This document shows, piece by piece, positions 6,631 to 34,079 of a stretch of 42,682 bases of DNA. Each line of letters opens with the position of its first letter. Positions within the stretch are counted from its first letter, which is position 1. Location: the IMG/VR virus record IMGVR_UViG_2703718834_000012. The stretch is one strand, 5' to 3'. The stretch comes from a virus. Its lineage: Duplodnaviria > Heunggongvirae > Uroviricota > Caudoviricetes. The translations under genes were made by a program, and so were the position numbers. The notes under the pieces were generated by a model. That model worked only from the letters and a program-made list of their open reading frames with translations, searched no databases and was not told the DNA's origin.

Positions 6631-8033
6631 TGCCTCAGTACCTTCATGGTTGTCGGCATAAACGCCGGATGCGGTACGCGCGCTTCCTGTACCAGTTCAT
6701 CTGCACGGGTGGCATCCTGGTATAATCGGTTTGCCAGCGTCAGCGCCGGAAGCGGCTGAGCGGTAGTAACCTGCAGAAGCTCGCTCAGACCAGAAGCACG
6801 CTCACTCATCGTAGAAAGGAATGCCGATCTGACGGCGAGAAGCGCGTTATACATATCATCGTCCGCGCGGTCTCCAGCCAGAACCAGCGCCGTATCAAGT
6901 TGCACAGAAACTCGTTGAGTTAACTCTTCTGCCTCGTCTGTACTGGCTGGTCTGGAGTCCGCAGCGGCACTGGTCATGGCACCAGTACATAGCACAACAA
7001 TCAGCGTGTTCATGGTCGCCGAAATCGCTTTGCTGCTGTCGGACTGCTGGTACTCCGTGCTGATTGAATTAGCCAGTTTTTCCAGCGCTGTGATTCGGTC
7101 ATTAACGCTGCCGGCGCTGTTAAGAATTGCGTTTACCACGTCGGCGACGCCCTGGACAAACTCATCAGGTGTGTTGGAGCTGCTAAGCTGGCTCGACCTG
7201 TCGGTAACATTTTTCCGGTCCATTACCGACTGGGCTGTTACCTTGTCAGCCAGTGCTCTCTCATCATCCACATCAGCAACTGACGATTTGCCAGCAACAG
7301 CAGAGGAACTACCGCCCACAGAGCCTTTACTGTAACGTCCGTACCGGGTATTCCCGAACGTGGAGTTCAGGACATTGCTGAGATTCGTGACCTGACTGAT
7401 GGTGCTGTCAACCATGTTAGTCCAGAACGTGACCGTGCCTCTGATGGTGTTTATAGCCTGTGTGACACCGCGGATTTCACTCTTAACTCTGGCAATCGTG
7501 CTCAGCACAGCAGTGCTGACCAGTTTCAGATAGTTGGTTTTCACCGTGGCGCCTGCAACGGTACTGCCCGTGACAGCAAACACTTTAAGCCCTGATTCAA
7601 TTGCCATCAGGGTAAATTCAAATACTCGCCCGTTCTCCATCGAACCGGAAATACGCAAACCATTCTCAGGGATGGAAACCGTTAATTCGCCCAGTGTCGG
7701 ATGGACAAGCGTACCGCTACCTTTTTGTTCACAGGCTTCAATCAGTGACTGGCGCTGCGTGATAGCATCGCCGCCGCCGTAAACCTGGCTGTTCTGGATC
7801 AAGAAACCGCGAATAACAAATCGCCGTGTTGCCCGCCCGATATCCTCTATCCAGGCTGTATCACGGTAGGGATATTCATGTACCGCCTGGCGTCGGCCGT
7901 GGCTCCCTTCCTCAGCAACAATTGCAAATGGCACACCTCTGAATGAGCTGGGCCGTAACTGCCCCTGCCAGTCATCGCTGGTATCTCCCCCCAAAAGAGA
8001 AGTTATTGCGTCCTGGATAATTGACGGCATCAC
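6627..8033 (-). CDS. DNA circulation protein (Mu gp43/N-like)
   Basis: 468 aa with GGAGG RBS; position after tape measure gene in Mu-like order. Confidence 0.6.
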   Translation of the reverse strand: MMPSIIQDAITSLLGGDTSDDWQGQLRPSSFRGVPFAIVAEEGSHGRRQAVHEYPYRDTAWIEDIGRATRRFVIRGFLIQNSQVYGGGDAITQRQSLIEACEQKGSGTLVHPTLGELTVSIPENGLRISGSMENGRVFEFTLMAIESGLKVFAVTGSTVAGATVKTNYLKLVSTAVLSTIARVKSEIRGVTQAINTIRGTVTFWTNMVDSTISQVTNLSNVLNSTFGNTRYGRYSKGSVGGSSSAVAGKSSVADVDDERALADKVTAQSVMDRKNVTDRSSQLSSSNTPDEFVQGVADVVNAILNSAGSVNDRITALEKLANSISTEYQQSDSSKAISATMNTLIVVLCTGAMTSAAADSRPASTDEAEELTQRVSVQLDTALVLAGDRADDDMYNALLAVRSAFLSTMSERASGLSELLQVTTAQPLPALTLANRLYQDATRADELVQEARVPHPAFMPTTMKVLRQ

Positions 8034-24394: not shown

Positions 24395-25447
24395 TTATTC
24401 CCCTGTTAACGCCCTTATTTCCTCCACCGTCTGGCTAAACCTGTCCTCCTCGAGTTCAACGCCGATAGCCTGGCGGCCAAGTTCCAGCGCGATTTTCACG
24501 GTCGAACCGGACCCCATAAAGAAATCAGCCACCACATCACCAGGCTTACTGCTGGCGTTGATGATCTGCCGCAACATGTCAGCGGGTTTTTCGCATGGGT
24601 GTTTACCTGGGTAAAACTGAACGGGTTTATGTGTCCAGACGTCGGTATAAGGAACGGATACGGAAACAGAGAAATGCCGCCGAAGCGATTTGTACTCTTC
24701 GAGCAGCTCTGAATACTTGCGATTTAACGAATGCCACATAGCCACCAGCTGGTGGTGTGGTGTTGCCAGTTCGCCGTTCTGGTGCTTTTCGATGGCTACC
24801 TGCGTGAAAAGGGACTGAAGATTCCGGTAGTCTAATTCATTCGGTAATTGCCACTGGCTACCGCTGAACCAGTGAGACACCATGTTCTTCTTTCCAGTCG
24901 CATCGGCTATTTGTTTTGAGGTTATGCCAAGCGCTTCACGTGCATCCCGGAAATAAGAAATTAGGGGAGTCATTACATGCTGCTTCAGCTCGCTTCCCTT
25001 CTCCGCGTAACCGTCGCTCTTTGGTTTATACGGCCCCTGGTAATGCTCAGCGAAGAGGATGCGCTCTGTTGCAGGGAAGTAAGAGCGCAGACTCTCTTTA
25101 TTACAGCCATTCCAGCGGCCCGACGGTTTAGCCCAGATGATGTGGTTCAGGACGTTGAACCGCTCACGCATCATGATCTCAATGTCTGCCGCCAGGCGGT
25201 GACCGGAGAAAAGATAAAGACTGCCAGCAGGTTTAAGCACTCGCCAGAATTGTGCGAGGCACATATCAAGCCAGCGAAGATAATCCTCATCCCCTTTCCA
25301 CTGATTGTCCCAGCCGTTGGGTTTCACTTTGAAGTACGGCGGATCCGTGACTATCAGGTCAATGGAGTTATCAGGGAGAGTGGCGATGTATTGCAGGCTA
25401 TCAGCGTTGACTAACTCGACACTGTTTATATTTACAGTATTTTTCAT
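24395..25447 (-). CDS. DNA methyltransferase, beta-class amino-MTase (N6-adenine or N4-cytosine)
   Basis: 350 aa; N-terminal catalytic DPPY motif (IVTDPPYF) and C-terminal SAM-binding FxGxG (DFFMGSGST). Confidence 0.85.
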   Translation of the reverse strand: MKNTVNINSVELVNADSLQYIATLPDNSIDLIVTDPPYFKVKPNGWDNQWKGDEDYLRWLDMCLAQFWRVLKPAGSLYLFSGHRLAADIEIMMRERFNVLNHIIWAKPSGRWNGCNKESLRSYFPATERILFAEHYQGPYKPKSDGYAEKGSELKQHVMTPLISYFRDAREALGITSKQIADATGKKNMVSHWFSGSQWQLPNELDYRNLQSLFTQVAIEKHQNGELATPHHQLVAMWHSLNRKYSELLEEYKSLRRHFSVSVSVPYTDVWTHKPVQFYPGKHPCEKPADMLRQIINASSKPGDVVADFFMGSGSTVKIALELGRQAIGVELEEDRFSQTVEEIRALTGE

Positions 25448-29550: not shown

Positions 29551-29799
29551 TCAGACCGTTGATTTCATATTATCAGAAGGTTGGGTTACCCGGTAGCCGA
29601 GACGGTTAATAAACTGCATAAAACCATTAGGAGTAAAGACCTCTTCATCATCCAGCAAAGGCCGCATAGAAACCATGCCATTGACGCGATAAATTAGATG
29701 CCTGCCCGATGAAGGAAAGCTAAACACCACGCAGCCGTCAGACCTTCTTACAATGTCATACCAGTTGTCTTCTGACGTTTGCAAAGCTGAATCACTCAC
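29551..29799 (-). CDS. Hypothetical protein downstream of dinI homologue
   Basis: 82 aa, GTG start with AAGGGAGA RBS. Confidence 0.5.
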   Translation of the reverse strand: MSDSALQTSEDNWYDIVRRSDGCVVFSFPSSGRHLIYRVNGMVSMRPLLDDEEVFTPNGFMQFINRLGYRVTQPSDNMKSTV

Positions 29800-29916
29800 A
29801 TTTATGTTCTCCCTTCGAGCGACTAACAGACGCGATTAAAGATTGTCGGCAGCAGCATCAGAGGGTTACGCAAATTGCGGTATTCTGAAAAATGCGCGCC
29901 AGCCTTAAGCGCAATT

Positions 29917-30150
29917 CTAATAAAACCAGTCGTCAGCGCTTTCCCAGGTATCCTGGAGGATTGATTCAATTTTCTTTTTATCGTCCTTGTCACCACCAAA
30001 AACACTTAACCCATCGGCCCCGGCACGGCGGATTGTGAGCCTGCAATTGTCATAGTGATCATTCAGGCGCTTAAGCAGTTCTTTCTCCAGTGCTGGTACT
30101 GCGCCTTTAGGAAGTTCTTTCATGCGATCAATGGTTAATTCAACTTTCAT
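29917..30150 (-). CDS. dinI: DinI-family protein
   Basis: Start MKVELTIDRMKELPKGAV...; C-terminus ESILQDTWESADDWFY matches E. coli DinI. Confidence 0.85.
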   Translation of the reverse strand: MKVELTIDRMKELPKGAVPALEKELLKRLNDHYDNCRLTIRRAGADGLSVFGGDKDDKKKIESILQDTWESADDWFY

Positions 30151-30168
30151 AATGGCCCCCATTGCATT

Positions 30169-30188
30169 TACTGTGTTTTTATACAGTA
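30169..30188. promoter_or_regulatory. LexA (SOS) box
   Basis: TACTGTGTTTTTATACAGTA, a perfect CTGT-N8-ACAG palindrome, 19 nt upstream of the dinI-like start. Confidence 0.85.
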
Positions 30189-30258
30189 TACCTATGCGCG
30201 GAAATGATCAACGCTTTAAGAGCACAAATTGTTAATTTTCTGTCAGTAGTAAAAAAAG

Positions 30259-30278
30259 AAAACCCGCCGTAGCGGGTT
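30259..30278 (-). terminator. Terminator-like hairpin
   Basis: 7-bp stem AACCCGC/GCGGGTT followed by a T-rich run on the minus strand. Confidence 0.5.
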
Positions 30279-32804: not shown

Positions 32805-33344
32805 TCATATAGCCCCCAGCATAATCTGCACCATTTCCATCAACGGACCGGTTAACCCAGGGTCAACGCGATACATCTCCACGATCCCCTCGCTCAACTC
32901 TTTCAGCTTCTGATGACGTGGCGCATCCATTGCGACAGCAATCTTCGCTTCGCTGGTTTCCTTCTCCAGCCTTGCCAGACGAGCCATTACGTTGTCTTCT
33001 GGTAGCAGACGATTGCGGTATTCAATCGGCAGGACAGCGAGGATTGCCGGAGTCAGCTGGCGAACGTTTTCGCGGTACCGTTCGCTGTTGAAATGGTTAT
33101 CCAGAAAGCGGAAAAGCTTCTGACGCTGTCGGCTGAGGTCATCAGGGAAAGTGATCTCGTCTCCCCCTTGAGCCTGGTACTCTTCGATGATCAGAGCAGA
33201 AACGACATCCTGACCATCTACACCCGCCCACGCACGAACGGCATCGCGGATCTGGTCATGTTTATCTACCGAGACAGGTTGATTGCGATTTATCATCGCA
33301 GCCGTTTGATATCCGCTATTTTGATGAAGTGATAGTGACTGCAT
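32805..33344 (-). CDS. Regulatory protein in cII position (CII/YdaT-like, uncertain)
   Basis: 179 aa directly downstream of cro-like gene; assignment by position. Confidence 0.4.
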   Translation of the reverse strand: MQSLSLHQNSGYQTAAMINRNQPVSVDKHDQIRDAVRAWAGVDGQDVVSALIIEEYQAQGGDEITFPDDLSRQRQKLFRFLDNHFNSERYRENVRQLTPAILAVLPIEYRNRLLPEDNVMARLARLEKETSEAKIAVAMDAPRHQKLKELSEGIVEMYRVDPGLTGPLMEMVQIMLGAI

Positions 33345-33346
33345 GG

Positions 33347-33580
33347 TTATGCCCTCGCTTCCTGAGCCGGTAATCCATCCGTAGGGTTGAGGTACAAATC
33401 AGGGCGTAACTCATGTGGAGTTACACCTGTAGCATTGAAAATAGGAATGACACGGTTAGCCGGTACGAATCCATTGTCACGGTGACGCCAGTGACTGACC
33501 GTCATTGGGGATACATTGAGCTTTTCTGCTAAACGGGTTGCACCCCCTACGATGCATATTGCTTTATCAAGTGCTTTCAT
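33347..33580 (-). CDS. Cro-like HTH regulator
   Basis: Start MKALDKAICIVGGATRLAEKLNVSPMTVSHWRHR at ATG 33578-33580 with GGAG RBS; divergent from repressor. Confidence 0.7.
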   Translation of the reverse strand: MKALDKAICIVGGATRLAEKLNVSPMTVSHWRHRDNGFVPANRVIPIFNATGVTPHELRPDLYLNPTDGLPAQEARA

Positions 33581-33607
33581 ATTTGGCTCCAAGTAATAAC
33601 GAACCAA

Positions 33608-33653
33608 ATTAAACATTATGTTTATGTTCAAGTCAACATTATGAATGTTGAGG
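33608..33653. promoter_or_regulatory. Immunity-region operators with divergent pR/pRM-like promoters
   Basis: Palindromes TAAACATTATGTTTA (33610-33624) and AACATTATGAATGTT (33635-33649); minus-strand TTGACT-N17-TTTAAT and plus-strand TTGAGG-N16-TAGAAT overlap them. Confidence 0.55.
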
Positions 33654-33683
33654 CGATAAACTTTTAGTTTAGAATCTTGATAT

Positions 33684-34079
33684 ATGAGAAAAAACACACA
33701 CCAAACAGATAACCCGCAGGTTCGGCGGTTAAATGAAATCATCGAGAAGAAGCGCATATCCAAAGCGGATATAGCGAGAATCTGTGGTGTGAGCGCACAA
33801 TCAGTCAACAACTGGTTTGTCAGAGGAGCGATAGGAAAAAGCTCAGCAATAAAACTTGCCGATGCGCTAGGCGTAAGTCTTGAGTGGGTTCTAGGTCAGG
33901 ACGTGGATGCTAAGGACGGTTTGAGACACGACGAACGGAGACTGTTGGAACTCTATAATCAACTCCCAAACGAAGAAGAACAACAGAACATGTTGCGGAT
34001 CGTATCTCTACGGTTGAAAGAACTCGATGAACTGTACGCCAAGTACATGGGACGGCGGATTAAGGGGGATGGTGAGTAG
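33684..34079 (+). CDS. CI-like prophage repressor (short, HTH only)
   Basis: 131 aa; XRE-type HTH (ISKADIARICGVSAQSVNNWF); no LexA-like S24 autocleavage domain; apparently leaderless start. Confidence 0.8.
   Translation: MRKNTHQTDNPQVRRLNEIIEKKRISKADIARICGVSAQSVNNWFVRGAIGKSSAIKLADALGVSLEWVLGQDVDAKDGLRHDERRLLELYNQLPNEEEQQNMLRIVSLRLKELDELYAKYMGRRIKGDGE

Follow-up and report, generated by a model that had tools for sequence, protein, structure and literature searches.

The DNA analysed here, a stretch of 42,682 nucleotides referred to below as the window, carries on its minus strand what its sequence identifies as a close orthologue of the Gifsy-1 SOS switch, in this case located in an E. coli prophage. 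The system itself is not new: its mechanism and gene order were already published in 2011 (PMC3121763), together with the presence of the dinI-irsA region and of gfoR homologues in Escherichia prophages, and what is new here is an orthologue that had been left unannotated. Very probably the prophage has a Gifsy-1-type switch made of two modules, and the locus is the one that senses the SOS signal. In the operon orientation, between 28.9 and 30.3 kb, it is composed of a terminator, a LexA box, dinI, a spacer, a gfoA-like ORF and a DUF1367 gene, after which the YbcO, RusA and Q genes are found; each element listed in the initial annotation was found where it had been placed, on the minus strand. 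The features of the unit are:

30261..30278, minus strand: intrinsic terminator identified by a terminator scan, AACCCGCTACGGCGGGTT followed by TTCTTTTTTT
30184..30210, minus strand: putative PdinI promoter, with a -35 element TTGATC (30205-30210), a 15-nt spacer and a -10 element TATACT (30184-30189)
30169..30188, minus strand: LexA (SOS) box, TACTGTGTTTTTATACAGTA, which reads TACTGTATAAAAACACAGTA in the operon orientation
29917..30150, minus strand: dinI homologue, 77 aa, matching Pfam DinI (PF06183) with E=3.8e-26 and 91.6 bits vs a cut-off of 24.2
29800..29916, minus strand: dinI-gfoA spacer, 117 nt, containing a weak hairpin and the Shine-Dalgarno sequence AAGGGAGAA
29895-29913, minus strand: hairpin after dinI, with a 6-bp stem and a 7-nt loop, flagged by the terminator scan
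29551..29799, minus strand: gfoA orthologue, 82 aa, with a GTG start preceded by AAGGGAGAA
28917..29516, minus strand: DUF1367 gene, the unit's third gene, coding for 199 aa (Pfam DUF1367, 3.4e-92)

Across the locus, the window is 98.4% identical at the DNA level to coliphage mEp237 (NC_019704). Among 5426 complete E. coli genomes, 52 in all carry the locus, and in at least 44 the prophage locus is 100% identical.

The unit is opened by a strong terminator. The hairpin at 30261-30278 has an energy of -12.8 kcal/mol and a z of -4.83, with none of 200 shuffles being equally stable, and it is followed by a long T run; the alignment reveals the same hairpin upstream of PdinI in Gifsy-1, Gifsy-2 and the Citrobacter loci. 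Judging from the sequence, this terminator shields the SOS operon against early-right transcription arriving from upstream. In the Gifsy prophages, too, terminator-like palindromes precede the LexA box, which adjoins a dinI homologue and lies 1.3 kb downstream of the replication genes (PMC3121763). The putative PdinI promoter is located about 50 nt beyond the terminator, and its -10 element coincides in part with the promoter-proximal half of the LexA box. This assignment is derived from the sequence and from the alignment with Gifsy-1 and Gifsy-2, where the corresponding columns read TTGAAT-15 nt-TATACT; the -35/-10 pair was not called by a consensus promoter scanner, which requires a spacer of 16-18 nt, the one found here being of 15 nt. 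In the Gifsy-1 prophage of strain D23580, a SNP in the -10 element of PdinI abolishes induction, which is restored by its reversion (PMC5322425).

The initial annotation had placed a perfect SOS box 19 nt upstream of a DinI-family gene, and both parts of this claim hold. Nowhere else in the window is TACTGT-N8-ACAGTA matched exactly, and none of 100 dinucleotide shuffles contains such a match; when up to two mismatches to the LexA consensus are allowed, three matches are found in the window vs 0.76 expected. The bases lying between the box and the dinI ATG at 30150 are 18, corresponding to 19 in the counting used by the initial annotation. A distance of 19 bp between box and gene is also reported for the three dinI genes found in Gifsy-1, -2 and -3 (PMC8072944), whose expression nalidixic acid raises by a factor of 4.6 to 23 (PMC8072944). 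The dinI product, besides its Pfam match, is assigned to phrog_189, RecA filament binding protein DinI, and is 66% identical to its DinI counterparts in Gifsy-1 and -2. An in-frame ATG at 30162, chosen by the ORF lister, is probably not the start of the gene, because the homologues begin with MK/MR-V/I-EL and a GGGGG motif precedes the 30150 ATG by 7 nt.

Between dinI and the gfoA-like ORF, the spacer displays a mean column identity of 73% in the alignment, and its length is usually of 105-117 nt across the 19 loci analysed (about 116 nt in Gifsy-1). The window spacer is 83-89% identical to those of Gifsy-1 and Gifsy-2, while the corresponding value for dinI is 67-68%; compared to distant loci, the identity of the spacer is 62-68%, about equal to that of the flanking coding DNA and no higher. 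A scan detected no promoter-like site in the spacer (29800-29916). As for structured RNA, RNAalifold predicted 13 pairs with zero compensatory changes and the single-sequence z was +0.34, and no Rfam match to the spacer was obtained, either at the gathering score or at E values up to 1. A 60-aa ORF overlapping the spacer (29823-30005, minus strand) was rejected as a gene, its frame being broken by indels in the Enterobacter loci.

The hairpin at 29895-29913 had been described in the initial annotation as weak and as leaving the co-transcription of the two genes uncertain. The first statement stands: the hairpin is real, with an energy of -8.6 kcal/mol, a z of -0.71 vs shuffles and a T run that is separated from the stem. 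Conversely, the doubt on co-transcription is largely removed, since the same hairpin is kept in Gifsy-1 and Gifsy-2, where expression from PdinI was demonstrated genetically. Indeed, when the LexA box at dinI is replaced by PBAD, Gifsy induction becomes dependent on arabinose, and deletions of dinI leave induction unaffected (PMC3121763). Should the hairpin act instead as a working terminator, the 82-aa ORF would be expressed little or not at all and DinI would be the sole SOS product, as the flagging of 29895-29913 by the terminator scan and the succession of a 6-bp stem and CATTTTTCAG might suggest. This possibility is very unlikely: the stability of the hairpin is like that of shuffled sequences, in contrast with the z of -4.8 of the true terminator upstream; the Enterobacter and Siccibacter loci lack the hairpin; and in Gifsy-1 and Gifsy-2, which share it, induction is nevertheless driven by PBAD at dinI, abolished by the -10 SNP in PdinI and insensitive to the loss of dinI. 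Thus, co-transcription of dinI and of the gfoA-like gene is the best reading also for the window phage, by analogy with Gifsy-1 and Gifsy-2, because the weak hairpin is common to prophages with a PdinI-driven antirepressor and no promoter-like site was detected in the spacer. The spacer, with its conserved length and sequence, and the GTG/TTG start codon could form together a post-transcriptional throttle, acting through incomplete termination or through masking of the ribosome site, a tentative and rather doubtful idea; if true, the throttle would set the SOS level needed before the antirepressor exceeds the repressor, a threshold device that is undescribed in the Gifsy papers.

The designation of the 82-aa GTG-start ORF as a candidate antirepressor is supported by the comparison with Gifsy-1. 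In the Gifsy prophages induction is controlled by LexA through an operon formed by dinI, an antirepressor gene with a non-AUG start (gfoA, gfhA or gftA) and irsA (PMC3121763), and the minimal interval able to cause induction corresponds to the GUG-start ORF between dinI and irsA (PMC3121763). The antirepressors GftA, GfoA and GfhA accumulate after mitomycin C treatment, bind the repressors and displace them from operator DNA (PMC3121763); in particular, a pull-down with GfoR recovered GfoA, and in gel shift experiments GtgR came off operator DNA in the presence of GftA (PMC3121763). The three repressors, GtgR, GfoR and GfhR, are short and are not cleaved (PMC3121763).

The correspondence with these genes was established through the primers published in Table S1 of PMC3121763, which encode the termini of GfoA and GfoR. 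A search with the window repressor retrieved two Salmonella proteins (P0126 and P0141) of 131 aa, starting with MKEKTHQ and ending with EKYMKGRIRTRED, exactly the termini given by the gfoR primers. P0126 is encoded in a Gifsy-1 prophage adjoining rseC (locus L035), which exactly matches four published primers, namely gfoR 5', gfoR 3', PdinI and gfoA 5'; gfoA in this locus codes for 82 aa and has a TTG start. The 82-aa ORF of the window and the GfoA protein of this primer-verified locus have equal length and are identical at 75 of 82 positions, so that the candidate is 91% identical, at the sequence level, to an experimentally proven antirepressor.

For the published gfoA 3' tagging primer, no exact match was found in the viral contig scan. 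Primer le163 of the same Table S1 ends with ...TCTGATATA, while the Gifsy-1 genome (L035 5388-5440) reads ...TCTGATAATATG...; the one-base mismatch of le163 probably reflects either a typing error in the table or a tag that replaces, or precedes, the last six gfoA codons. A different combination was seen in a Gifsy-like prophage on a Salmonella contig (L036, MOCQ01000008.1; 5420-5641 and 10001-10396), which encodes an exact GfoR, but has GftA after dinI and is devoid of the DUF1367 gene; modules can thus be shuffled, and this GfoR-GftA pair may be mismatched.

The GfoA family is small: in a set of 1.84 billion clustered proteins it has 39 representatives when clustered at 50%, and its alignment contains 17 invariant columns over at least 30 species, in a fixed synteny. 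A non-ATG start, GTG or TTG, was called in all the 19 loci analysed. The 82-aa protein has no Pfam match; it belongs to phrog_340, of unknown function, and nothing was retrieved for it by a PDB sequence search or by a Foldseek search of the PDB with its AlphaFold model, which consists of four strands and one helix at moderate confidence (pLDDT 72). RefSeq/PGAP labels the gfoA orthologue as hypothetical in the 52 E. coli genomes and in mEp237. The DUF1367 gene begins 34 bases after the 82-aa ORF and occupies the position of the Gifsy "irsA homologue"; its product is 88% identical to STM1020/STM2620.

The second module, the immunity region, is located 3.9 kb upstream of the LexA box and comprises:

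33684..34079, plus strand: GfoR-family repressor, 131 aa, with Pfam matches to HTH_3 and Phage_CI_repr only
33578..33683, no strand assigned: operator/promoter region separating the repressor from cro and containing two palindromes, TAAACATTATGTTTA and TCAACATTATGAATGTTGA
33347..33577, minus strand: Cro-like gene of the YdaS family, divergent from the repressor (Pfam YdaS_toxin, 7.3e-16)
32805-33344, minus strand: CII-like gene of the YdaT family, after the Cro-like gene (Pfam YdaT_toxin, 1.9e-25)

The description of the CI-like repressor as a protein of 131 aa devoid of an S24 peptidase domain proved correct: it contains HTH domains only and ends 55-60 residues past the HTH. Neither the repressor nor any other ORF that was scanned individually in the 24.4-42.7 kb interval gave a Peptidase_S24 hit; this absence is based on the ORF-by-ORF scan, since the Pfam alignment scan of the whole window covers the best 25 of 52 families. 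The global identity with GfoR, which also has 131 aa, is 72.5% (74-75% local), and the HTH stretch ARICGVSAQSVNNWFVRG is identical in the two proteins; the operator region is about 80% identical to that of Gifsy-1 (14028-type), with both palindromes conserved. Given the identical HTH and the kept palindromes (window 33578-33740), the prophage may share its immunity specificity with the Salmonella Gifsy-1 of strain 14028.

On these comparisons, the 131-aa repressor is the presumed target of the antirepressor. GfoA also inactivates GfhR, which is only 66% similar to GfoR; the window repressor is thus a plausible target, being 73% identical to GfoR. The two proteins differ at 36 of 131 positions, and therefore we infer, rather than take as given, that the window variant of GfoA binds this repressor. 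A further alternative, in which the 82-aa ORF is non-functional and induction proceeds via RecA-stimulated cleavage of the repressor or via an unrelated protein, might appeal to the absence of a Pfam family and to the hypothetical label in RefSeq; it is hardly credible, in view of the conservation of the family, with its 17 invariant residues, its presence in at least 30 species and its fixed synteny, of the 91% identity with a proven antirepressor, and of a repressor without a peptidase domain whose counterpart GfoR was shown to be uncleaved (PMC3121763). The homology of both partners with GfoA and GfoR, together with the gene order, supports the earlier proposal that a Gifsy-type antirepressor, controlled by LexA, acts on a short repressor that cannot be cleaved.

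According to the preferred Gifsy-1-type reading, in the lysogen the host LexA bound to the 30169-30188 box would hold the operon of dinI, the gfoA-like gene and the DUF1367 gene in the off state, because the box overlaps the -10 element of the dinI promoter, and the upstream terminator would exclude other transcription. Following DNA damage, activated RecA would promote LexA self-cleavage and the operon would be read through the weak hairpin located after dinI; the GfoA orthologue would then be translated from its GTG codon and would bind the 131-aa repressor, encoded 3.9 kb away, which would leave its operators without being cleaved. The loss of the repressor would derepress the early operons, leading to lytic growth. 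In this scheme LexA binding, co-transcription, the contact between antirepressor and repressor and the release of the latter are modelled on the experiments performed with the Salmonella orthologues.

The distribution of the module was analysed by a comparative scan limited to one genome per species, with 8 kb fetched around each locus. A GfoA-like gene was found in 30 loci, from other Enterobacteriaceae species belonging to Citrobacter, Enterobacter, Raoultella, Siccibacter, Atlantibacter, Leclercia, Silvania and others; it is followed by DUF1367 in 26 of the 30 and preceded by dinI in 23. Upstream sequence was usable for 29 loci, and in 28 of these the GfoA-like gene is preceded by a LexA box, defined by no more than two mismatches and by an intact CTG/CAG. 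Five loci have no dinI (L024, L025, L027, L028 and L031, at about 7810-8005), and in these the LexA box is found 155-190 nt before the GTG start; in the dinI-less locus of Silvania confinis it reads TACTGTTTATATATACAGTA. The retention of the box in all five suggests that what is selected is the linkage of the antirepressor to a LexA box. This conserved link, the order of the parts, the orthology with GfoA and GfoR and the absence of a peptidase are all readable from the sequences themselves.

A GfoR-family repressor, 52-98% identical, was found in all the 13 loci in which an immunity region could be recognised within 8 kb and was not truncated by the end of the locus; the pairing of repressor and antirepressor thus covers these 13 loci, the repressor being out of view within 8 kb in about half of the related loci. 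The identities of the two proteins are uncorrelated across the loci, and no co-variation emerged, all the repressors seen belonging to one family. In three loci (L005, L013 and L023, upstream of position 7600) bacterial genes for ArsC, a TetR family protein, a PapD chaperone and EAL occur 2-5 kb upstream of the SOS unit, and these loci look like prophage remnants that keep an orphan antirepressor under SOS control.

These observations bear on another explanation, namely that the module of the window is a trans-acting or orphan antirepressor, aimed mainly at the repressor that a different resident prophage encodes, the phage's own repressor being insensitive or controlled in a different way. 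Gifsy antirepressors do act across heteroimmune prophages (PMC3121763); moreover, the three orphan modules lie beside bacterial genes with no immunity region seen, the identities of antirepressor and repressor do not track each other, and L036 pairs GfoR with GftA. However, a complete GfoR-family immunity region is present 3.9 kb away in the same prophage, GfoA tolerates divergence as large as that of GfhR, the window repressor being closer to GfoR than GfhR is, and an action in trans would supplement that in cis, not replace it. This explanation is accordingly considered quite unlikely, and the Gifsy-1-type switch acting on the resident repressor is retained as the preferred reading.

A second LexA-like box, TACTGTAAATATAAACAGTG, with one mismatch, is present at 25420-25439 on the minus strand, within codons 3-9 of an N6 DNA methylase gene (24395-25447) that lies upstream of the lysis genes. 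Its CTGT...CAG frame is kept in mEp460, in a Stx2a phage, in phiP27, in a Providencia phage and in a Klebsiella phage, and the N-terminal peptide varies among them. As far as the sequence tells, this could be a real LexA site, placing a further site under SOS control in the late region, or mere constraint on the protein sequence.

The value of these results lies in annotation, and the gain for biology is small. Antirepressors of the GfoA and GftA types are labelled as hypothetical proteins, and therefore the prophages carrying them seem to be without an SOS-sensing device. Also in PHROGs v4 both phrog_340, to which GfoA belongs, and phrog_4847, that of GftA (L002 2268-2489), are listed as having unknown function. 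For the E. coli prophage described here, which is found in about 1% of complete genomes, it is predicted that DNA-damaging antibiotics would induce it through LexA, that its induction could in principle be reversible, and that it may cross-talk with other prophages of the GfoR family, possibly including those with Gifsy-1-like immunity types.

Among known systems, the closest is the Gifsy-1 prophage of Salmonella Typhimurium ATCC14028, which shares with the window the terminator, the LexA box placed 19 bp before the ATG of dinI, dinI itself, the antirepressor gene with a non-AUG start, the DUF1367/irsA gene, and an HTH-only repressor of 131 aa transcribed divergently from a YdaS-type Cro. The two differ in the start codon of the antirepressor (TTG in Gifsy-1, GTG in the window) and in the interior of the LexA box, which is ATAAAAAC in the window vs GTTTATAT; in addition, the window has a CII-like gene of the YdaT type, lacks a parA-like gene beside the repressor, has a late region that is not Gifsy-like and derives from an E. 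coli host. Coliphage mEp237 has the same succession of genes, with gp48 as DinI, gp49 as the orthologue of GfoA, sharing 96% identity with the window ORF, and gp50 as the DUF1367 protein; it differs in having two tandem GfoR-family genes (gp39 and gp38), where the window has one, and a different Cro. Within the tandem pair (L001 10904-11783), the 155-aa protein starts with MEKVKHH, resembling the MTKVKHH start of GfhR, and the 130-aa protein is 73% identical to the window repressor. No functional work was found on gp49, which is annotated as hypothetical.

The GftA/GtgR pair of Gifsy-2 is similar to the window in operon position, in the spacer (83% identical), in the GUG start and in the mechanism, as revealed by gel shift; conversely, GtgR is a different type of repressor, which is unaffected by GfoA. 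BLASTP detected no similarity between GftA and the window ORF (E 0.94), while hhalign aligned GftA colinearly with the GfoA family over 59 columns, with a marginal E of 4e-4 and a probability of 34%; the two proteins belong to different PHROGs.

More distant parallels are Tum of phage 186, AntC of N15 and the Rem/DicA pair of Qin, all antirepressors acting on repressors that cannot be cleaved; Tum and AntC are also controlled by LexA. Tum is a fusion of an antirepressor and DinI, thus linking the same two functions, in a gene order that is reversed with respect to the window. In E. coli K-12 Rem relieves the repression exerted by DicA, and it was reached from GfoA by iterated searches (PMC10448788); in the comparison of Rem with the GfoA-family profile, hhalign detected no similarity (E 0.38, probability 0.2%). 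Neither a LexA box nor dinI is found upstream of rem in the Qin prophage of E. coli K-12. The rem gene (L038 4904-5050) is preceded by AACCCGCTTCGGCGGGTTTTT, a terminator sequence that is also found before PdinI in Gifsy-1, which suggests that the Qin rem locus is a decayed version of the same module.
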